Shown here: in pieces, positions 31,497 to 43,814 of the stretch | How the letters are laid out: every line of letters starts with the position of its first letter | Position numbering within the stretch: position 1 is the stretch's first letter | Assembly (NCBI GenBank): GCA_044359535.1 | Contig: JBIKLZ010000001.1 | Span: 1 to 64,000, forward strand | Length of the DNA: 64,000 nucleotides | Direction: 5' to 3' | From: Chlamydiia bacterium | GTDB lineage: Bacteria > Chlamydiota > Chlamydiia > Chlamydiales > 2-12-FULL-49-11 | Notes under the pieces: model-generated | Seen by the model: only the letters and a program-made list of their open reading frames with translations | Told to the model about the DNA's origin: nothing | Database searches by the model: none | Position numbers and translations under genes: made by a program

Positions 31497-31993
31497 TGCT
31501 TTTTCCTTGATTGTTTACCATGAATAATTGTTCCAATCTCATCTTCAACAATGGCTTCAAAAATTTCTAGTTCCTTTTTAGCTTCTTTACTCCACTCCTT
31601 TTCATGGGTATGAATTTTTTCTAGATCCTTATGTTTTTCAAGGCGTTCTGCACGTGCTTTATCTAAAGCCACTTGAGCTTCTTGAACAACTTTTTTTTGC
31701 GCCTCAACCTTCTTTTTTTCCTCCGCAATTTTGACATTGATCACCTCTTGAATATAGTGATTATGTCTTTCCATCACATCAGCTGTGGTTCCATTTTCGA
31801 TCTTTTTATAATGCTTTTCAATCATCTCTAATTTTACCTTTTCAGAGGCATTTAAGAGTTTTTTTTTCTCTGTTAAATTCTTTTCAGCCTCAACAAGAGC
31901 CTCTTGCTTCTGACGAAGAATTTTTTCAGCTTCTTCTAAACGACGTTTTTTTATTTCTATAATTTCTTTTAAGGGGTATTCTTTCTTTTTCAT
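31493..31993 (-). CDS. cdsO: T3SS stalk protein CdsO/SctO (CT670-like)
   Basis: [19 protein letters not shown] coiled coil; directly downstream of cdsN with an ATGA overlap. Confidence 0.9.
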
Positions 31994-33357
31994 TTAAATA
32001 GCCCCATCAATTGATTTAACGTTTCATCCATCGATGAGTCTTCTTTTGTCCCCTGTTTTAGAAACCGATTGACTTTATCGATATATTTAATCGCGTAATC
32101 GGCATTTTTATCAGACCCAGGTTTGTACTCTCCAATACGGATTAAAAGTTCAATTTTTTTGTACGTTGCAAGAACTTCACGAATTTTTCCTACAACTACA
32201 AGTTGCTCTTTTGAAATAATATGTCCTATGATACGACTTGCCGAAGAAAGGATATCAATAGCCGGATAGTGGTATTGACGGGCAAGCTCGGCAGATAAAA
32301 TGATATGACCATCTAAAATCGAGCGTACCTCATCTGCCACAGGTTCATTCATATCATCGCCAGCAACTAAAATGGTGTAAAAGGCAGTGATCGATCCTTT
32401 ATTTGAGTTTCCAGATCTTTCTAAAAGTTTTGGAAGGGTGGCAAATACTGAAGGGGTAAATCCCGCTCTTGCAGGAGGCTCGCCAGCAGCAAGACCCACT
32501 TCTCGCAAAGCTCGAGCAAAACGGGTGACAGAGTCCATCATTAAAATGACTTTTTTCCCTTGATCCCTAAAATATTCAGCAATGGCAGTCCCAACATAGG
32601 CCGCATTTAAACGCAATTGAGGGGATTGATCTGAGGTTGAAACAATAAGTACTGAACGTTTAAGCCCTTCTTCACCAAGATCATTTTCAATAAACTCTCT
32701 AACCTCTCTTCCCCTTTCCCCAATTAAGGTAATGACATTGACATCGGCTTTTGCATAACGGGCAAGCATCCCTAAAAGGGTGGATTTACCCCCTCCTGCA
32801 GCAGCAAATATCCCCACCCTTTGCCCTTCACCACAGGTTAAGACAGCGTCAATAGCACGAATCCCTGTGGATATAGGTGTAGAAATAACTTTTCTTTGAA
32901 GGGGGTCTGGAGGGGAGTTGATCACTGAGTAGGTTTCAGTAAGGTCTAATGGCCCTTTTTTTTCAATATCTAAAGGTTCACCTAAACCGTTTAAAACCCT
33001 CCCAAGAAGCTGATTTCCCACTTTTATAGTAAGTTTTGCATGTAAAGGGATCACTTCAGAGGAGGTAGAAATTCCATGCATCTCTCCAAGGGGAGATAAA
33101 AACACTTCATCTTTAGTAAACCCCACCACTTCAGCTAAAAGGGGGGAACCCTCTCTTTTAATCAAGCAAATTTCTCCCATTTTTACATTAGGGACAATGG
33201 CTCGAATTAACATCCCAACCACTTCTGTAATTCTTCCATGAACAATTGAAAGCTCAATATCCTCTAAGCGGTGCTCAACCTCATCAAAGGAGACAGTAAA
33301 CGAGAGGTCATTGTTGTCATCAAACTCTTTATACTTTTTTTTGTGAAGGAAAAACAT
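31990..33357 (-). CDS. cdsN: T3SS ATPase CdsN/SctN
   Basis: [45 protein letters not shown]. Confidence 0.98.
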
Positions 33358-34484: not shown

Positions 34485-34730
34485 TTATTGAGTTCTTTGG
34501 TTACTGATTGTCTTATTTATAACAGTTTGTATTTGAGCAAGTAAGTTAGAAATCGAGGATCCAATCTGGGTCACTTGACTCATTGCATATTGTAGGAGCA
34601 AAAATCTTCCAGGAGTTGCAGTAGAAATTCTTGATGCAACTTTTCGAACCATACTCATTACCTGACTTTGCAAATGCACATATTTATTAATTAATGTGCT
34701 AAATGTTACTGATCCCCATTGACTTGTCAT
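34485..34730 (-). CDS. cdsF: T3SS needle subunit CdsF/SctF
   Basis: 81 aa helical hairpin between cdsE and cdsG; FLLLQYAMSQVTQIGSSISNLL pattern. Confidence 0.82.
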   Translation of the reverse strand: MTSQWGSVTFSTLINKYVHLQSQVMSMVRKVASRISTATPGRFLLLQYAMSQVTQIGSSISNLLAQIQTVINKTISNQRTQ

Positions 34731-35038: not shown

Positions 35039-36748
35039 TTATTCATTGAAGTCAATTTTATATTTTATCCCCCCCTGTTGAAGGAGGATTTGATTATTAG
35101 AAATAGAACTTATAATCATCCCATCTAACGTATCGTTAACACCTAAGATTTTTCCATTGATAAGGACAAATTGATTTGCATTGCCAAATTTTGAAGAACC
35201 TGTGACCTGATATTTACTTGTGATATCAATTGCAGAAGAACTTTTTGTCGTAAAAAGGACAAAATTTTGAACAACCCTGATCCCTTGAACATGCAAGATC
35301 TCTTCAACAAGTTGAGTGAATGTCTCTTTATCGGCCTCATCGGCTCTTCCAGATAGGATAAGTTGACCGTTTGTTTGCTGTATTACAACATTTGCAAACC
35401 CTTTATCTAACAACATCGATTCAATATGAGCATTTAAAGAGTCTTGAGCAACCACTTGATTCTGAAGAAGATTGAGGTAATCAAAATAGTTATTGATAAA
35501 ATCTGTTAAAGAGGCCCTTTCTTCTTCAGTTTGAATATAGCCGGTTAAAAGAAACTCTCCAGGATCTCTTGCAGTCATTAAAACCGATTGCCATTGAGGG
35601 TTTTTTGAAAGTAAGGCGTTGATATTGCTACATACAATTGAGTCAATGATGACGTTATCATCAATTGTACCAATATAGGGGATGTTTTTTAAACGGTAGG
35701 AAAGTTCACTGTAGCTGATTTCATTAAGAACATGGCCAGTTAGAAATAGGGTGGAGGTTGTTTTATTGTAGTTAAACTCTACTGCTTGAAAATGGGAAAC
35801 AGCACTTTGTATCTGCATAGATTCATCCACAGAGGGAGGTTCTACAGAAGAGCTCCTAAATAAGGCAAGCATACTGATAATCCCTATGCATATAAAGGCA
35901 GAAAATACCGAGGCAAGGGCTAAATGTTTTGTAGGGATAAAGGTATCTTTCCAATGAGGGGGCTTTTCTTCTTTTTTTTCTTCAGAAAAAATAGAGTCTT
36001 CAGAAGGAAAAGGGGTTGAAATCCCTGGAGAGTAGATTGTCTCCCTTGTTTGATCCATATCAAGGAAAAGAATCGAGGTGTTTCCAAGATGAATTTGATC
36101 AAAAGGGTGTAAAACTCTGTCTGAGGCAATTTTTTTTCCTTGAACAAAGACCCCATTTCGACTTTGTAAATCAATAAGAGCCACCTCTCCAGAAGAAGAT
36201 AGGGTAATTCTTGCATGGGCTTTTGAGACACTTAAATCATGAAGTAGAATATCGGAGTGCTCACTATCTGAACCTATGACGTAGCTTTCTCCCTCAACTA
36301 AGGGGAATGTTGCCCCGGTTGCCGATCCATTCATCACTTTAAGGACCCATTTTGAGGGGGTGTGGCTTTTTGTGAAGTGGCCTAATGTTAAAGGGGCTGA
36401 AGGCTCTTGTTTAGAAAAGGCAAGCTCTTCTTGCTGTTGCTTTTCTGGAAGAGAAAGGGAAAATCTAAAAGTGTTGTTCCCTATTTGAATTAAGTCATCC
36501 TCAGTAAGGGGGGTTTTTTCCTCTATTGGGGACTCATTTAAAAGAGCTGGGTTTGTAGAGCTTTCATTTTGTATAAAATAGGTGTCGTTTTCAAAAAATA
36601 TCGAAAGGTGCTTTCGAGAGACCATAGGGTCTTGTAAAACAAAGGTACAGACATCTTTATCTCGACCAATTGTCCAATGGTTTCCTTCATCAAATGTAAA
36701 CACCCACTCACCAAGTGGACCATCTTCACATATTAGAAAGCCTTTCAT
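35039..36748 (-). CDS. cdsD: T3SS inner-membrane ring protein CdsD/SctD with two FHA domains
   Basis: FHA1 (IGRD...SRKH...STNP), FHA2 (IGSD...SKAH...SRNG), one TM segment, periplasmic BON-like domains. Confidence 0.93.
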   Translation of the reverse strand: MKGFLICEDGPLGEWVFTFDEGNHWTIGRDKDVCTFVLQDPMVSRKHLSIFFENDTYFIQNESSTNPALLNESPIEEKTPLTEDDLIQIGNNTFRFSLSLPEKQQQEELAFSKQEPSAPLTLGHFTKSHTPSKWVLKVMNGSATGATFPLVEGESYVIGSDSEHSDILLHDLSVSKAHARITLSSSGEVALIDLQSRNGVFVQGKKIASDRVLHPFDQIHLGNTSILFLDMDQTRETIYSPGISTPFPSEDSIFSEEKKEEKPPHWKDTFIPTKHLALASVFSAFICIGIISMLALFRSSSVEPPSVDESMQIQSAVSHFQAVEFNYNKTTSTLFLTGHVLNEISYSELSYRLKNIPYIGTIDDNVIIDSIVCSNINALLSKNPQWQSVLMTARDPGEFLLTGYIQTEEERASLTDFINNYFDYLNLLQNQVVAQDSLNAHIESMLLDKGFANVVIQQTNGQLILSGRADEADKETFTQLVEEILHVQGIRVVQNFVLFTTKSSSAIDITSKYQVTGSSKFGNANQFVLINGKILGVNDTLDGMIISSISNNQILLQQGGIKYKIDFNE

Positions 36749-36865: not shown

Positions 36866-37276
36866 TTATTTGTCTAGCCGAATTTTATTGTTAACTTCCT
36901 TTTTCCAATAGGAAAGATAATTAACAAATTCTTCTACCCAATCGAAAAACATTTTATAATTTACTTCATAAGCGATGAGGGTAGACAGTGTCAAGAACTT
37001 CTCATCAGGATCGATACTTATTACAGAATTACCTGTTCCTTGACCCAAATAGTTAGCCTGTGAAAGATAGATGTAGAAATCCTCGACATTTTTTATCTCC
37101 TTTTCATTAAAAGGAGAGATGTTTGAAGAGATAAAAATAAAAGAGTGTTCCTCCTCAAAAGACAGTTCGCTCCCATCATTTATTGTGAGGAAATATTTTT
37201 TTTTAGTTCCATGTTCTTCTGTAACTAAAGGGATGTTGAGTTGCTTTTCTAACTGTTTAATAAAGGATTCAAGCAT
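36866..37276 (-). CDS. scc4: Class I T3SS chaperone Scc4 (CT663, CesT family)
   Basis: 136 aa, acidic; ANYLGQGTG and EEFVNYLSYW; upstream of cdsD. Confidence 0.88.
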   Translation of the reverse strand: MLESFIKQLEKQLNIPLVTEEHGTKKKYFLTINDGSELSFEEEHSFIFISSNISPFNEKEIKNVEDFYIYLSQANYLGQGTGNSVISIDPDEKFLTLSTLIAYEVNYKMFFDWVEEFVNYLSYWKKEVNNKIRLDK

Positions 37277-37296: not shown

Positions 37297-37731
37297 TTAT
37301 GATTTTAGCCAAGGAGATTGTCCCCTTTTAGAACGTTTTCTTTTTATCCGCCCTTTTGTTGTCTTAAGGGGATCTTCAGTTTTTTTAGAAGAAAGCTTTT
37401 CTTTATCCCTTTTAGCCGAAGATTTAGCAGTTTGGAGCATCTCCCATTGCTCCTTTGTGAAGTTGCTTTCATCTAAGGATAAAGCATTGATCTCTTCAGG
37501 GGTTAACGAAAGTTGTTCTTGAGAAAGTTTTTTTTCGTAGGAAATTTTTTCTTTTAAAAGGGCCATTTTTTCATTAATAGACTTTTTTTCTGTCTCATCG
37601 CCTTTATTTTGGATGTACTTGTATTTTTCTATAAACGACATGGTTAAGTGAAAAATTTCATCAATGCGCTGTTCTTTGTCCTCTGACTCTAAAGAAAATA
37701 GATCAATGAGTGTACTAAAATCATCCTTCAT
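37297..37731 (-). CDS. Hypothetical helical protein with a basic C-terminal tail
   Basis: 144 aa ORF co-oriented with scc4; tail KRKRSKRGQSPWLKS. Confidence 0.75.
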   Translation of the reverse strand: MKDDFSTLIDLFSLESEDKEQRIDEIFHLTMSFIEKYKYIQNKGDETEKKSINEKMALLKEKISYEKKLSQEQLSLTPEEINALSLDESNFTKEQWEMLQTAKSSAKRDKEKLSSKKTEDPLKTTKGRIKRKRSKRGQSPWLKS

Positions 37732-37827
37732 GACTTTGAATATAGTTATTTATTTTTAGAAGGGAAGTTTTTTTATTGAATCTTAAGATAAGAATTGTTC
37801 AATTACAAGAAAAGAGAGGAAGAGGGT

Positions 37828-38241
37828 ATGAATCAACTTGAAGAAATAGAGGATGAAATCTTTGAGACAATGGATCTTATGATACAAGCTTACAAAATGT
37901 TTAATGAGGTTTTAAAGCAGGATCATTTTGCTCATAAGGCTATAGCTGCCTCATTAATGGATCAAATAAGTAGACAATTTAAAATAGATGTTAGGGAAAA
38001 AGAGGAAAAGATTGCCTCTATTAGAGATCACTTTGGAAGCGATGCTTTGATAAGTGACGAAGAAGCAAAACTAAAAGAAGAAAAATTTAAATCTTTTACC
38101 TTTAAAGTTGAAGAGTATGAAAAGATGATGGAAATGACTGCAAAAAACCTAAAAAAGCACTTTCCATTAAATAATAGAGCTCAAGAATTTAAAAAGAAAA
38201 GAAATAGACTAAGAAAAATGAGATCTAAAGGGAGAAAATAA
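37828..38241 (+). CDS. Hypothetical helical protein with a basic C-terminal tail
   Basis: ATG at 37828 with GAGGG RBS; charged helical sequence; tail KKKRNRLRKMRSKGRK. Confidence 0.72.
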   Translation: MNQLEEIEDEIFETMDLMIQAYKMFNEVLKQDHFAHKAIAASLMDQISRQFKIDVREKEEKIASIRDHFGSDALISDEEAKLKEEKFKSFTFKVEEYEKMMEMTAKNLKKHFPLNNRAQEFKKKRNRLRKMRSKGRK

Positions 38242-38610
38242 GTGTTAGACGAATTAAAAAGAACCATAGAGGCCTTTAAAGAGATCCTTAAAATGAACCT
38301 TCAGGCAAAAGAGCCTTCACATTCAGCGATCATGTTGTGGCTAATTAGGGTGTTTTCGGTGGCCAATGGCTTATTGCAACACGCAGCCACATTAGAGGAT
38401 AAAGGGAAAATTTTTGACCTTATGAAGGGGATGCACCCTTTTTTAGAATCCAATAGAGAGGTCATTAAAAGGAAATTAAAAAATGAAGATATCAAAAATC
38501 CTCAGGAAATTGTGGTTACAATGATCAGTTTTGAAAAACAGACAAGATTGTACTCAAAATTTTTACGGGCAGCAAATAGAGAAAAAGAACGAAAAGTAGT
38601 AAATCAGTAA
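38242..38610 (+). CDS. Hypothetical protein, 122 aa (possible chaperone)
   Basis: GTG start immediately after the previous stop, with GGGAG upstream; amphipathic helices. Confidence 0.65.
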   Translation: MLDELKRTIEAFKEILKMNLQAKEPSHSAIMLWLIRVFSVANGLLQHAATLEDKGKIFDLMKGMHPFLESNREVIKRKLKNEDIKNPQEIVVTMISFEKQTRLYSKFLRAANREKERKVVNQ

Positions 38611-38652: not shown

Positions 38653-39690
38653 ATGTCAGATCCAGTAACAGGAAACCAAGGGCAAGATCCAACAGATCCA
38701 ACAGATCCTTACTCAACAGCGGGGATGGCTCAGCAAATAATGCAACAAATTGATCAAATTATTGACGATTTAAAAAAGCACCCTGCCGATATGACCCAAG
38801 CAATCAATGAAGTATTTAATAAAATGCAACAGCTTCAGGGGAACCTTGTGGGGCAATCTTCTGAAACGCAATCAGCAATGACAGTAGCTACAAACGGTAT
38901 TGCAAACTTACAAGCCTATGGAGCTGATAAGGATGGGACCCCTGTCCAAGATATTAATGTCTATACAGGTTTACCGGAAGTAAATGCAGATGGATCAAAA
39001 AAGATGGTCTCTCCAGAAAAAGCCTTTCAAGATGAGTCTACTTTTTTACTGAATAATCCAAATACTCAATATCAATTAGATTCAAGTGGAAAAGCCATTC
39101 AAGCTGTTGGAGCTGATGGAAAACCGATGTTTGATAAAGATGGCAATCCTGTCTTTGAAAAAAATAAGCTCTATACATTTATGCATACAAAAGGAAATGA
39201 GGCAGTTGCAGAACAACTTAAATCTGCTGTGGAAGGATCGATCACCTCACTTTCAGATAAAAATTGCCCTGCAACGTTTTCTGGGGACTCTGGATATACA
39301 ATAGACCCAAAAACAGGGCAGGTAGAGCTTGATGATAAAGGAAACCCTAAAGGAGAGCAAGTCTCTATTACTCAACCGGGTACAGATAGTAAAGGGAATC
39401 CAACTTTAGGGTCTATCGGGAACATGTGGAATAAAGCTGAGCCGGGAACCGATACATCAGGGGGGTCAACAACCCCTAAAACTCCTGATTCTTCGATTTT
39501 AAATGCCTTTCAAAGTGCCATGGGGACCTTAGGGCAAGCTGGAACGGCCTCTTCATCGACCTTGCAAGCCTTTATAAAAGTCTTAACCGATAATTTTACC
39601 GGTTCCCAAGGAAACTTAAACAATGCCCTCAATAAATCGATCTCGTTACTGACAGCAATGGTGAATAATTCTCGACCTGGAGGAGGTTAA
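38653..39690 (+). CDS. Candidate T3SS needle-tip (LcrV-like) or other secreted structural protein
   Basis: AAGGAG RBS; disordered N-terminus, helical termini, central DxxGxP hairpin repeats; C-terminal helix LTDNFTGSQGNLNNALNKSISLLTAMVNN. The ORF is secure; the function is inferred. Confidence 0.5.
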   Translation: MSDPVTGNQGQDPTDPTDPYSTAGMAQQIMQQIDQIIDDLKKHPADMTQAINEVFNKMQQLQGNLVGQSSETQSAMTVATNGIANLQAYGADKDGTPVQDINVYTGLPEVNADGSKKMVSPEKAFQDESTFLLNNPNTQYQLDSSGKAIQAVGADGKPMFDKDGNPVFEKNKLYTFMHTKGNEAVAEQLKSAVEGSITSLSDKNCPATFSGDSGYTIDPKTGQVELDDKGNPKGEQVSITQPGTDSKGNPTLGSIGNMWNKAEPGTDTSGGSTTPKTPDSSILNAFQSAMGTLGQAGTASSSTLQAFIKVLTDNFTGSQGNLNNALNKSISLLTAMVNNSRPGGG

Positions 39691-39776: not shown

Positions 39777-39818
39777 AAAGGTAGGGAAAAAGAACTTTAA
39801 TAAAATAAGGATAAAAAA

Positions 39819-40835
39819 ATGGATTTAGAAGATATACCTAATAATGATCAAAATAGTGTTTCTAATGAGATTGAAAGACAAAAGATTGAGGCAGAACTTA
39901 ACGCTATCAATCACGATAGTGGGGGAAAAACGGTAGATCCAAAAAAGGGATTAGCTGCCGTTATGACAGGATTAGATGCTGTAACTAAAGAGGCTTCTTC
40001 TAAAGAATCAGCCGGGCAGGGTTCAGCAACTGAGGATACTTCGAGTAACCCTTATGCAAGCGATTCTGATTCTGATTCTGGTTCTTACTATGTAACAGAT
40101 CCTTTGGTAGCCTCAATTCTTGCGGGGGTAACAAACCTTACTTCTAAAACAGAACTGATGAAAGCCACCTCTGATATGCAAGAAAAGCTCTCTGATTTAA
40201 CAACAAAGGTAGCACAATCAGGACGTGATTGGATGCAAAACTTTTATCAATATGGACTTGTAGCTTCTGATGGTTCTGCATCAATGGGCTCTTATGATGC
40301 GGGCACCGCCCATAAGCCTGGAGATGTGTCTGTAGTGGATTTTAAAATTGCGAATGGAAAAATTTCCATGAGTATTAATGGAGGGGTGACTTGGGAAACC
40401 CTAGGTCCAGATAGTTTAATTGAGGGGACACCTTCGGATACTTTAATAGCTGCAGCATTTCCTAACTATACCACAAGTGGATTGAATTCTGGCGAGCTTG
40501 CGTACTTATCACAACAATTTTATGATGCAGGGTTTAAAACAGCACAAGGTCCGGTTCAATTTCAAGGGATTCTTATAAATAATGGAACAACCGAAGGGGG
40601 GGGGACAGGTCTTCAAGCAGCATCTAGTGGAGATATGCAAGCTTTAATGAGTCAGTGGTCATATGTTCAACAAACTGCAAACAGTAATAATCAAACCATT
40701 CAAACAACCTCTAATTTACCTACAGCGATGCAATCAAACACAAACTCAGATATTGGTAATAGTACTCAAAGTCGGCAAGGTGTTGAAGGATGTTTGGATA
40801 GTACAGCAAATTTAATTACAGGTTGGACAAGGTAG
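39819..40835 (+). CDS. Putative T3SS-secreted protein, paralogue A (Asp-box-like motif)
   Basis: Ser/Thr/Gln/Asn/Gly-rich; motif-level identity to 40845..41774; SINGGVTW. Confidence 0.65.
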   Translation: MDLEDIPNNDQNSVSNEIERQKIEAELNAINHDSGGKTVDPKKGLAAVMTGLDAVTKEASSKESAGQGSATEDTSSNPYASDSDSDSGSYYVTDPLVASILAGVTNLTSKTELMKATSDMQEKLSDLTTKVAQSGRDWMQNFYQYGLVASDGSASMGSYDAGTAHKPGDVSVVDFKIANGKISMSINGGVTWETLGPDSLIEGTPSDTLIAAAFPNYTTSGLNSGELAYLSQQFYDAGFKTAQGPVQFQGILINNGTTEGGGTGLQAASSGDMQALMSQWSYVQQTANSNNQTIQTTSNLPTAMQSNTNSDIGNSTQSRQGVEGCLDSTANLITGWTR

Positions 40836-40844
40836 GGGGTCTTT

Positions 40845-41774
40845 ATGAGTGATAATTTAGGTATAAACTCCGATGGAGTGAATAATAGTGTTCCTTCTCA
40901 AGATGTCGATTCTACAAAAAAATCTTTAAAAGGGGTCGATCCGAAAGTAGCCCATGCAGCCGTTGTTTCAGGGTTAGAAAACGCAATTGATACAGCACAG
41001 TCAGAAAGCAAGACTTCCCATGCAATGCCTGCCCTTATGGCAGTGATTGAGGCATCGCAAAAATCTCAAGATGCAGGGAATGAAATTATTACAAGTCTCT
41101 CATCCATGGCAAATCAGATCGTGGAAGTGACCACAAAAGCCACTACTGAAGGGGTGCAGTGGGCCAATAACTACTATAATTATGGACTTTCTACCGCCCA
41201 ATCTGACCCTTCACAAGGGATTGGTCAATGGTCTAAAGGGACAGATCTTCCGGCAGGACCGATCACAGTAAATATGAAAATTGAGGGGGGAAACTACTAC
41301 ATGAGTATTGATGGGGGAAAAACCTACAAAAATATTGGGGCTATTATGCGTGGAGATGATGGATTTGTAGCTCCCCCTCCTCAATCTGAAATTGATGCTG
41401 CCTTCCCTGGGTATACATGGCCTACAGATCCAAAACTTGTGAATGAAAATAAGGCAAGCACATACTGGCATTCTGGAACAGGATGTCAGGGGGATGATCA
41501 AGTTTTCACAATGACTATTGAGGCTCCCGATAGAACCACAGGGGGGACAGGGATTGCTGGTGGAGCTCCTGATGACATGAATGATAAGTTAAATCAGTAC
41601 TCTTATATACAAAATGTTAATAGTGAAGTAAATACTGCAAATCAAACCCTTTCAGCCCTTCCAGGGGCTCTTGAAAATACCATTGTCACTTCAATCAATC
41701 AAGGGAACAGCAATGCAAAAGATATCCTTAACGCCCAAGATCAGCTTGGGAATATGATACAAAACGCAGGGTAA
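40845..41774 (+). CDS. Putative T3SS-secreted protein, paralogue B (Asp-box motif)
   Basis: Shares VDPK..AAV..GL, W..N.Y.YGL, MSI.GG.T, AAFP.YT, GGTG and Q.SY.Q with 39819..40835. Confidence 0.65.
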   Translation: MSDNLGINSDGVNNSVPSQDVDSTKKSLKGVDPKVAHAAVVSGLENAIDTAQSESKTSHAMPALMAVIEASQKSQDAGNEIITSLSSMANQIVEVTTKATTEGVQWANNYYNYGLSTAQSDPSQGIGQWSKGTDLPAGPITVNMKIEGGNYYMSIDGGKTYKNIGAIMRGDDGFVAPPPQSEIDAAFPGYTWPTDPKLVNENKASTYWHSGTGCQGDDQVFTMTIEAPDRTTGGTGIAGGAPDDMNDKLNQYSYIQNVNSEVNTANQTLSALPGALENTIVTSINQGNSNAKDILNAQDQLGNMIQNAG

Positions 41775-41795: not shown

Positions 41796-43814
41796 ATGGG
41801 TGATGATAAAATACAAAGAGCAGATAACGTAGGTGAAGACGCTTACGTATATAACGACCTTGTTCAAGATGGGGTGGAAAAGAATAAAAAAAAGACAAAC
41901 GCCCTTCTTTCGGGGTTAGAGCAGGTTGTGATGGGATCAATGGAAGAAAGTGAAGGGAAAACGCCATCAAAAGCTCTAAAGCTCCTTCAAAAGGACCCAG
42001 TACAATTTGCCGATCTTTTCAAAAGTTCAAATAAAACCGATCAAGATGAGGCTTTTAAAGCTATTGGAGCCTATGTAGCTTCTACAAAAGGGAGCGACAC
42101 AAAAAATTTAAGGGTTATGCTACAAGAGCTGATCAAGGGGACCCCTCAAGAAAAGAAGGGGGCTGAATTTGTTAAAATTGCTGAAGAGATGTTTGATACA
42201 TTTGCTAAAGGGGTGGATACAGGTCAGGTTTCTTTAGATGAGGCTTGTTGCTCCCAACAAATTCAAGCATTTTCTTTAGAGCTGATGAATACAAAGCATG
42301 GGGAAACCTCTACAGGGATAAAAAATGCATTAACCTCCCTTTTTCAAGGGAAAAAGATTGACGATGATTTTGTTGGAAAAGTGGTCGATCTTTCTGTTAA
42401 AGCCTCTGTGAGCAAGACAAAAGAAGGGGATGACATTATAAAAACCCTTACTTCAAATCAGGGTATAAAAGCGTTATATAATGCTAAAGGGGGGGATCCA
42501 TCGATAGATTCATTGTCTAAAACAGTGCCTTCTTCAAATGTCGGTGGTTCCTATGTGAACGCAATGATGTCGCTAGCGGCAGCCTTAGTAGCCCTTTTAG
42601 CAAATGTGTGTAATGCAGAAACCTCAGCAAGTGATATTGGGTCAAAAATTTCTCAAAAGCAAGGGGAAAATGCTGAATCGATTGCAAAAAATAATATCAA
42701 TGCCCTTCAAACTCAGTTGCAGGCTCAAGCCGATGCAAGCAAGCAACCTTGGTATATGTATTTAATTGCCGGTGTTTTAGCTCTTGCCGGTGCTGTGGCA
42801 ACATTTTTTACAGCAGGAGCGGCCGGTGCTGCTGTTGCTTTAATCATTGGGGCAGTTATGGCTTCACCAGCTGGAAGTAGTATCACTGGAGGGTTATCAA
42901 AAGCCTTAGGGGGAGATAATGCCGGTCCTGGGGCTCAGGCGGGAGCCACTGCAATTGTTGCTGCAATCACAACCATTTTGAGCTTAGGGGCGGGAGGGTT
43001 TACTTCTGCAACAGAGGCAGCTGAAACAGGTCTTGAACAAGGGGTAGATGCTGCAGGGGATGCTGCAGGGGCAGCTGCTAAGGGTGGAGGACAAGTTGCT
43101 GAGGATGCAACAGCAGCAGCCCAGGTGGGTGATGAGGCAGCAGATGCTTCAGGAAATGAGGCTGAGGAGACGGTAAGCAAGATATCCAAACTTACTGAGA
43201 AAATTAAAAAGGGTTTTAATCAGAAGTGGGATAACGGAGCTTTTACAAAAGGGATTGTTAAGAGGGGAATAGGGACCTATCTTCAAGGGTTTTTAGGTAC
43301 TGGGGGACTAACAGAGTCTGCTGAAGCAATTGCTACTGCTGTAAAGCCAGATATTCTTAATGATAGTAACTGGGCTCTTGCCATTGCTATTACCGGGGCA
43401 GTCATCTCTTTTGCTGGAGGGCTTGTTTCTGCTACTAAATTAACGGGTGCTGGGGTTGAAGAAAGGGCTAACTATTTATCACAGAAAGATCTTGTGGATA
43501 GCATTTTAAAATATACAAAGCCAATAGAAGTATCTGTAAGGGTAATAGAGGCCTCTGGAGCTTTAGCTCAAGGGGGGCTTAATATTGACCAAGGGTTTCA
43601 AGAGATGCATGTCTCTGATTTACAAAGACAAACAGCGTTAACACAGTCTGCATTAGAAATGCAGAAATCTGTTCAACAACAGGCTTTAAATTCTAATAGC
43701 GATATAAATAAGGCCTACACAGATATGGTGGATAATGTAAATAAAGCTGTTAATGAGGCAGAAGGGGCCATTGGGGTAGAGGAGCAAAATACAAAAAAGG
43801 CAATTTCTAAATAG
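41796..43814 (+). CDS. Major T3SS translocator, CopB/YopB/SseC-like (SctE)
   Basis: Coiled coil followed by a long Ala/Gly-rich hydrophobic region (WYMYLIAGVLALAGAVATFFTAGAAGAAVALIIGAVMA...), and a C-terminal coiled coil. Confidence 0.78.
   Translation: MGDDKIQRADNVGEDAYVYNDLVQDGVEKNKKKTNALLSGLEQVVMGSMEESEGKTPSKALKLLQKDPVQFADLFKSSNKTDQDEAFKAIGAYVASTKGSDTKNLRVMLQELIKGTPQEKKGAEFVKIAEEMFDTFAKGVDTGQVSLDEACCSQQIQAFSLELMNTKHGETSTGIKNALTSLFQGKKIDDDFVGKVVDLSVKASVSKTKEGDDIIKTLTSNQGIKALYNAKGGDPSIDSLSKTVPSSNVGGSYVNAMMSLAAALVALLANVCNAETSASDIGSKISQKQGENAESIAKNNINALQTQLQAQADASKQPWYMYLIAGVLALAGAVATFFTAGAAGAAVALIIGAVMASPAGSSITGGLSKALGGDNAGPGAQAGATAIVAAITTILSLGAGGFTSATEAAETGLEQGVDAAGDAAGAAAKGGGQVAEDATAAAQVGDEAADASGNEAEETVSKISKLTEKIKKGFNQKWDNGAFTKGIVKRGIGTYLQGFLGTGGLTESAEAIATAVKPDILNDSNWALAIAITGAVISFAGGLVSATKLTGAGVEERANYLSQKDLVDSILKYTKPIEVSVRVIEASGALAQGGLNIDQGFQEMHVSDLQRQTALTQSALEMQKSVQQQALNSNSDINKAYTDMVDNVNKAVNEAEGAIGVEEQNTKKAISK

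Follow-up and report, generated by a model that had tools for sequence, protein, structure and literature searches.

A candidate needle-distal protein in a type III secretion operon of environmental chlamydiae

Among type III secretion machines, the branch formed by the chlamydial injectisome is the oldest and the most divergent, and the locus described here raises the question of which protein stands at the far end of its needle. A well-resolved tip complex is visible by cryo-tomography in situ on the needles of Chlamydia trachomatis, according to the accessible text of PMC4682100, yet it has no agreed protein. The DNA considered in this study, referred to below as the window, consists of 64,000 nucleotides (positions 1 to 64,000 of contig JBIKLZ010000001.1, GenBank assembly GCA_044359535.1, from a Chlamydiia bacterium) and contains a chlamydial type III secretion region. 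I will call X the gene of this region that is followed by a gene of family Y within the plus-strand series A-B-X-Y-T672. I propose, tentatively and with a little less than even confidence, that X is a hydrophilic, extracellular tip or cap component at the needle's far end, working with Y, and that it represents a new sequence family, not a member of the LcrV/PcrV family.

An earlier reading, made from the sequence only, had taken X for a candidate needle-tip protein like LcrV and PcrV with a middle full of DxxGxP-type turns. The open reading frame (ORF) on which it was based is real, 345 amino acids (aa) from an ATG on the plus strand, and all seven turns it named are present (Table 1), six of them located by pattern search and GADGKP by reading the translation. 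The strict pattern D..G.P occurs four times where 0.16 are expected, a count reached in none of 5000 shuffles of the residues. X has no family in either Pfam or NCBIfam (both libraries were run on X and its neighbours and gave names to core secretion genes only), and the named public copies of X are all labelled hypothetical protein. No segment resembling a transmembrane helix occurs in X, in either of the two Y proteins or in the 402-aa protein at the end of the series, and no signal peptide is evident in X. Its predicted disordered N-terminus closes with a conserved DPYS motif and is a possible secretion signal.

The surroundings of X are those of an injectisome. The minus strand carries cdsN, a CT668-like gene, cdsG, the CdsF-like needle gene, cdsE (DUF5398), cdsD, a CesT-family chaperone gene and a 144-aa ORF, all diverging from A-B-X-Y-T672. 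This arrangement recurs. At every one of the 16 loci where this could be judged, namely the window, L002-L007 and L013-L021 (L008 stops at a contig edge), a Y gene directly follows X, and a small helical ORF with a basic tail precedes X at all 15 that allow that judgement, with 11 judged to be of type B and 4 of type A, both counts coming from a reading of ORF lists. In 13 genomes X and CdsF lie no more than 11 kb apart on a single contig, and at least three chlamydial families keep both the order of the operon and its link to cdsF and cdsD. Since X and Y are always adjacent, they may belong to one structure. The most economical account of the operon is that it serves the needle-distal and translocon parts of the machine and that X, like Y, would be an exported protein of the axial type.

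To what extent does X look like a tip protein? An AlphaFold2 model built on A1, an alignment and profile of 18 X sequences, has a predicted local distance difference test (pLDDT) value of 76.2 and a predicted template modelling (pTM) score of 0.71; a model from the single sequence was discarded (pLDDT 40). In the accepted model a disordered N-terminus is followed by helices H25-42 and H48-90; a central alpha/beta domain, composed of short strands and helices, comes next, with the long helix H281-339 after it, and there is no N-terminal globular domain. Within residues 91-280 the mean pLDDT of 10-residue blocks is 72-97, mostly above 90, and towards either end of the stalk the pLDDT drops to 40-63. 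Compact three-helix bundles superpose on residues 17-337 of the model with a root-mean-square deviation of 2.1-2.7 Å, and the terminal helices therefore pack together in the model, contrary to what would have refuted the sequence-only reading. The comparison by fold that it proposed had a mixed outcome: SipD, IpaD and BipD are among the fold matches, Foldseek finds nothing in the PDB at an E value of 1e-3 or better (the best rows are FlgK at 0.035 and PrgI-SipD at 0.37), and the matches listed include neither LcrV nor PcrV. Judged by the hallmarks of SctA proteins given in the available portion of a review (PMC10333785), X shares two: it is hydrophilic with a predicted coiled-coil stalk made from distant helices (H48-90 and H281-339), and it is encoded alongside translocator-like and needle genes. 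In size and in the arrangement of its parts, the modelled X is built like a tip or cap: its terminal helices make a stalk, and this bears a variable, exposed head.

The variation within the family follows the same division. An exhaustive HMMER search gave 20 representatives of X at an E value of 1e-3 or better. Distant members (247-334 aa) match only in their N-terminal helices (about residues 25-120) and their C-terminal helices (about 242-333), and the middle region has been shortened or replaced in them, including those of 247-288 aa. In A1 the gap fraction is 0.18 over the central part, as against 0.00-0.01 over the helices (0.01 for residues 25-90, a region that the profile also matches in distant members). 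The strict D..G.P pattern is absent from all nine of the distant members L013-L021, and the turns are therefore an elaboration, at the level of the genus, of a variable head, not part of the core of the family.

As a single query, X finds relatives in 7 of 41 related genomes, its own included, and all 7 are of its own genus. Among 200 genomes of the order, profile A1, which supplies what I regard as the clean counts, finds them in 13 (again with its own), among which are 10 of the 11 in family f1, the only one in f2 and one of the two in f20. A broader profile, A4, includes five proteins of family f33 added by eye after weak matches to the Pfam LcrV model; these lie no nearer to X than they do to Y, and results from A4 are for that reason exploratory. 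Across the phylum A4 finds members in 47 genomes out of 401, with none in the 30 from family f35, where a Y profile likewise finds none in 29 genomes. I take f35 to be Chlamydiaceae by inference, its genomes measuring 1.0-1.2 Mb and full-length major outer membrane protein (MOMP) having been found in all three genomes tested. The closest public relatives of X (L120 and L121) are in metagenome-assembled genomes filed as Chlamydia trachomatis. The label looks like a misassignment: MOMP is found in neither of two genomes of the X genus and in three of three from f35.

Starting from the gene, its motifs, the conserved operon, the hydrophilicity of the protein and its predicted architecture, all of which are observed, I infer a scheme of secretion, chaperoning, docking and oligomerisation. 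The disordered N-terminus of X would carry the secretion signal, and A, B or both, being small, helical and basic-tailed, would stop its terminal helices from associating too early. Once X is exported, its two terminal helices might come together as a stalk and dock either on the CdsF needle or on Y assembled as a short polymer or ring. The central alpha/beta domain with its DxxGxP turns would then face outward as a variable surface toward the host, and could help to place the hydrophobic T672.

Table 1. Features of the type III secretion region of the window, with the parts of X set out below its own row (positions are those of the window; numbers after the turns are residues of X).
Feature	Position	Strand	Description
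cdsN (SctN ATPase)	31990..33357	-	Named by Pfam/NCBIfam
CdsF-like needle subunit	34485..34730	-	81 aa; flanked by cdsE (DUF5398) and cdsG; presumed docking partner of X
cdsD (SctD inner-membrane ring)	35039..36748	-	FHA domains; named by Pfam/NCBIfam
CesT-family chaperone	36866..37276	-	PF05932, E 4.6e-9
144-aa ORF	37297-37731	-	Conserved, acidic, helical; adjoins the CesT chaperone; ends ..SPWLKS
A	37795..38241	+	148-aa helical ORF with basic tail; first gene of the operon; presumed chaperone-like
B	38242..38610	+	122-aa helical ORF with basic tail, directly upstream of X; presumed chaperone-like
X	38653..39690	+	345-aa hydrophilic ORF, ATG start; candidate needle-distal (tip/cap) component
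X residues 1-24	38653..38724	+	Polar, predicted disordered N-terminus; pLDDT <50 over residues 1-25
X residues 25-90	38725..38922	+	Helices H25-42 and H48-90; predicted N-terminal half of helical stalk
X residues 91-280	38923..39492	+	Predicted central alpha/beta domain with DxxGxP turns; indel-prone part
X residues 281-339	39493..39669	+	Predicted long C-terminal helix; best conserved part; contains the LcrV-like 29-mer (311-339)
X turns			DKDGTP (92), NADGSK (111), DSSGKA (143), GADGKP (about 154), DKDGNP (161), DDKGNP (227), DSKGNP (245)
Y338	39819..40835	+	First of two family Y paralogs; axial-type, tip-protein-like termini with an inserted domain
Y309	40845..41774	+	Second Y paralog; weak HrpE_Xanth match, E 0.012
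T672	41796..43814	+	672-aa hydrophobic translocator-like protein; segments 251-274, 319-364, 382-403, 526-547
P402	43903..45111	+	Hydrophilic 402-aa protein; last gene on the plus strand

The alternative that survives best gives the tip to the neighbour. Y, and not X, would be the needle tip or filament protein (SctA), and X would be some other substrate of the operon, such as a translocated effector or a host-binding, adhesin-like factor, co-regulated with the translocon in the way that ipaA and sipA follow ipaD and sipD. I think this unlikely, but several results speak for it and weigh against the role I have proposed for X. The Y family profile, A5, finds only seven sequences in the whole PDB at an E value of 1 or better, and six of them are tip proteins, at E values of 0.11-0.76: a SipD-like protein (2p7n), SipD, LcrV twice, BipD and PrgI-SipD. 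For closer comparison, reference sequences of LcrV, AcrV and IpaD were taken from plasmid records (LcrV from pYV of Y. pseudotuberculosis). Against full-length LcrV, A5 scores 18.5 bits (E 0.016 at the size of the PDB), a score that none of 4000 shuffles reaches; its score against AcrV is reached by 43 of 4000. Among language-model neighbours, Y338 scores 0.89 with a cluster of IpaD, SipD and SspD (180 shared features) and 0.90 with a chlamydial cluster that has the Pfam LcrV domain in 12% of its members, for which the score of X is only 0.85. Judged from their sequences, Y carries the more specific signal of a tip protein. On the side of X, the fold scores given above are within the range reached by chance arrangements of long helices. 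Repeats in very large proteins (P0016, 1323 aa, and P0019, 2775 aa with a NUDIX domain) and in CshA-repeat surface adhesins (P0021/P0022) match the turn-rich centre of X as well, around residues 133-280; such matches suggest a common short repeat or composition, not common descent.

What tells in favour of X is in part the size of Y. In most genera Y is a helical hairpin of 137-164 aa ending in ..GWGS, too small for a tip of the IpaD or LcrV type and nearer to a needle subunit or EspA; in the genus of X it has been duplicated in tandem, its needle-like helical termini enclosing an inserted domain of about 100 residues. It is X that is like known tips in size and in its arrangement of domains. 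The tip matches of Y are, besides, of doubtful specificity. A CdsF profile, intended as a positive control, found IpaD helices in the PDB at E values of 0.45-0.84 and no needle proteins, and matches of this kind may thus mark axial proteins in general. Nor are alignments of Y by hhalign significant, whether to LcrV and AcrV together (P 0.34) or to IpaD (P 0.67). Y, in short, has the size of a needle-like or EspA-like subunit and, by sequence, the clearer echo of tip proteins.

There are also faint resemblances among X, Y and the needle. X and Y have a weak C-terminal similarity (P 0.023, clean profile). The C-terminus of X aligns flush with that of CdsF, also weakly (P 0.0088 in an exploratory alignment with A4); with A2, a clean profile of the X family, the alignment that scores best sets the beginning of the X helix against that of the second CdsF helix instead (P 0.027). 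The X family and CdsF both end in [NG]Q[KR][ST][QN], in place of which the X of the window has ..NNSRPGGG. A bolder version of my proposal, one that I consider rather improbable, is that X and Y form a two-part extension of the needle new to injectisomes: Y would make a ring or short filament on CdsF, and X would cap it in the manner of FliD, presenting a fast-changing, turn-rich head to the host. If so, this would be the first tip complex identified in environmental chlamydiae, with an evolutionary origin separate from those of the LcrV and IpaD families.

Could X be what it was first taken for, a true though very divergent V-antigen of the LcrV/PcrV family, with B as its LcrG-like chaperone? 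The resemblance that prompted the idea is there. The terminal helix of LcrV, as the sequence-only reading gave it, agrees with LcrV of pYV, and in the register it gave, residues 311-339 of X match residues 294-322 of LcrV at 6 of 29 positions (T, F, L, N, K and S). The BLOSUM62 score of this pairing, 27, is the best among 317 windows of X, and an equal or better score is found for 23 of 341,143 29-mers from long open frames of the same genome, which amounts to about 0.02 expected per protein of the length of X. BLASTP of X against LcrV gives a single match of 12 residues (X 131-142 with LcrV 104-115, E 0.037 for the pair), and a small helical ORF stands directly upstream of X, as lcrG does of lcrV. 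The 12 residues of X (39043-39078) hold a motif conserved in the family, FLLNNPNTQYQL, and resemble a stretch conserved in LcrV and AcrV; this match is collinear with that of the terminal helix, at a spacing of 181 residues as compared with 191.

Comparisons by profile did little to strengthen the case. The alignment of profiles by which the kinship was to be checked was divided in its outcome: hhalign, with A1 and A2 against LcrV and AcrV, found the same register independently, but with a P value of 0.05 and a probability of 1%. By hmmsearch at the size of the PDB, LcrV receives an E value above 400 from A1 and of 12 from A2; the score of A2, 8.5 bits, is reached by only 4 of 4000 shuffles. 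AcrV, though 45% identical to LcrV, is not matched by A2 (718 of 4000 shuffles score as high), and the score of A2 against IpaD is equalled or beaten in 2410 of 4000. The better E values from A4 (0.72 for AcrV and 3.4 for LcrV) hinge on the five sequences added by eye, which have weak LcrV matches of their own. None of the 18 family members matches the Pfam models for LcrV, IpaD or EspA at an E value of 10 or better. The Pfam LcrV model finds nothing above its cut-off in the genome of the window or in 401 chlamydial genomes, a negative that says little because it was silent in all 14 control genomes as well.

What the profiles of X do find is coronavirus spike protein. No tip protein appears among PDB sequences at an E value of 3 or better, and the lists are dominated by the coiled coils of heptad repeat 1 (HR1), which outscore LcrV by far. 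Residues 277-327 of X, approximately (39481-39633), have a better match in HR1 than in any PDB protein of bacterial origin, with E values of 0.006-0.07 for single-copy HR1 chains and, for an engineered construct of repeated HR1, of 1e-7 by summed score and 0.06-0.6 for single stretches. I read these matches as a likely convergence of polar heptad repeats, not kinship. HR1 scores so much better that the make-up of the C-terminal helix of X, in polar heptads, is sufficient to account for the echoes of LcrV. The turns of X and its helix register are real and go beyond composition, but the resemblance to LcrV is statistically weak. With 0 of 18 members matching in Pfam, an insignificant profile alignment, LcrV and PcrV missing from the listed fold matches, no N-terminal globular domain in the model, and neither LcrG nor PcrG among the PDB proteins found by a profile of B, descent from the V-antigens is very improbable. 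The sequence-only reading thus finds support in part: not for its assignment of X to LcrV/PcrV, but for a hydrophilic protein with long terminal helices about a turn-rich centre prone to indels, in a type III secretion operon. That X is a surface, periplasmic or lineage-specific protein of some other function, placed beside secretion genes by chance, would accord with its lack of a family assignment and its middling fold scores, but seems highly unlikely given an operon order and a cdsF/cdsD linkage kept in at least three chlamydial families, no evident signal peptide or transmembrane segment, and a terminal-helix architecture common to X and its partner Y.

The rest of the operon and of the genome may be described briefly. 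T672 has no Pfam family, SseC included, and no match in 5 other chlamydial genomes, and its gene has counterparts in orthologous position in other genera. B has no Pfam family, and its profile finds no relative of any kind in the PDB. The tail of the 144-aa ORF is similar to the ..KWIKS/..KWLKS tails of B-type proteins in other genera. The assembly amounts to 1.2 Mb in 57 contigs and is 93% complete, and the stretch represented by the window is present in many lake-water metagenomes. The only match to Pfam SseC in the genome, an ORF resembling a glycoside hydrolase, was judged spurious. The operon of X contains no tetratricopeptide repeat (TPR) chaperone or lcrH; LcrH-like genes lie elsewhere in the genome, on contigs C15 and C48. 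The first of these, an LcrH/SycD-like chaperone gene (E 5e-24, below the family cut-off), belongs to a second compact locus resembling a translocon (C15:6361-8827, minus strand), which also holds a 177-aa ORF and proteins of 306 and 176 aa in which hydrophobic stretches can be seen by eye. The other is at C48:10191-10586. Two contigs of 151 nucleotides from a freshwater RNA library are exact matches to the window, one at 39780-39930 and the other at 39961-40111, and cover the 5' end of Y338 together with 39 nucleotides upstream; carry-over of DNA may be the cause. No contig of that one library covers X, which is evidence neither way.

The conserved pair beside the needle gene offers two concrete candidates for the tip, X with a tip-like predicted architecture and Y with tip-like echoes in its sequence, and would show how tip proteins diversify. 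The pair may not solve the question of the tip for human pathogens, as the sampled genomes of Chlamydiaceae yielded no member of the family. Other chlamydial proteins have been proposed as tips and pose the same question as X, beside which I set them by description only. CT584 (Cpn0803) is called a putative chlamydial tip in the accessible portion of PMC11512284 and, according to the part of PMC3459982 available, cannot be aligned to other tips. CPn0810 and CPn1022 were suggested on the basis of hydrophilicity alone, as described in the available text of PMC4760673, and the accessible sections of a paper on gene expression in Protochlamydia (PMC5451489) mention no tip. I found in the literature no description of the X family as a chlamydial SctA or tip, only CT584, CPn0810 and CPn1022, supplementary gene lists being outside the search.

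Among systems known from other bacteria, the nearest include the IpaD, SipD and BipD tips (PF06511, T3SS_TC), to which none of the 18 members of the X family has a Pfam match. The locus of LcrV, PcrV and AcrV (PF04792) and LcrG is similar in order, lcrG-lcrV-...-yopB corresponding to a small helical ORF, the hydrophilic X and the hydrophobic, translocator-like T672, and 6 of 29 residues of the terminal helix are identical in register. It differs in that there is no significant match between profiles, the model of X, with its stalk helices and single central alpha/beta domain, lacks the N-terminal globular domain of the LcrV dumbbell, and there is no lcrH in the operon. FliD and FlgK/FlgL, which the proposed cap brings to mind, have no sequence similarity to X, which is half the size of FliD and lies in an injectisome operon, not a flagellar one. 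Finally, the filament proteins EspA, SseB and Bsp22, as presented in the accessible part of PMC10333785, depend on a small helical chaperone of their own, and their genes stand immediately ahead of those of the translocators, two points that recall the locus of X, and a language-model neighbour cluster of X at 0.85, in which 12% of members have the Pfam EspA domain, provides a further lead, though only that. These proteins are about 190-205 aa in length and almost entirely coiled coil, a description that fits the small forms of Y better than it fits X.
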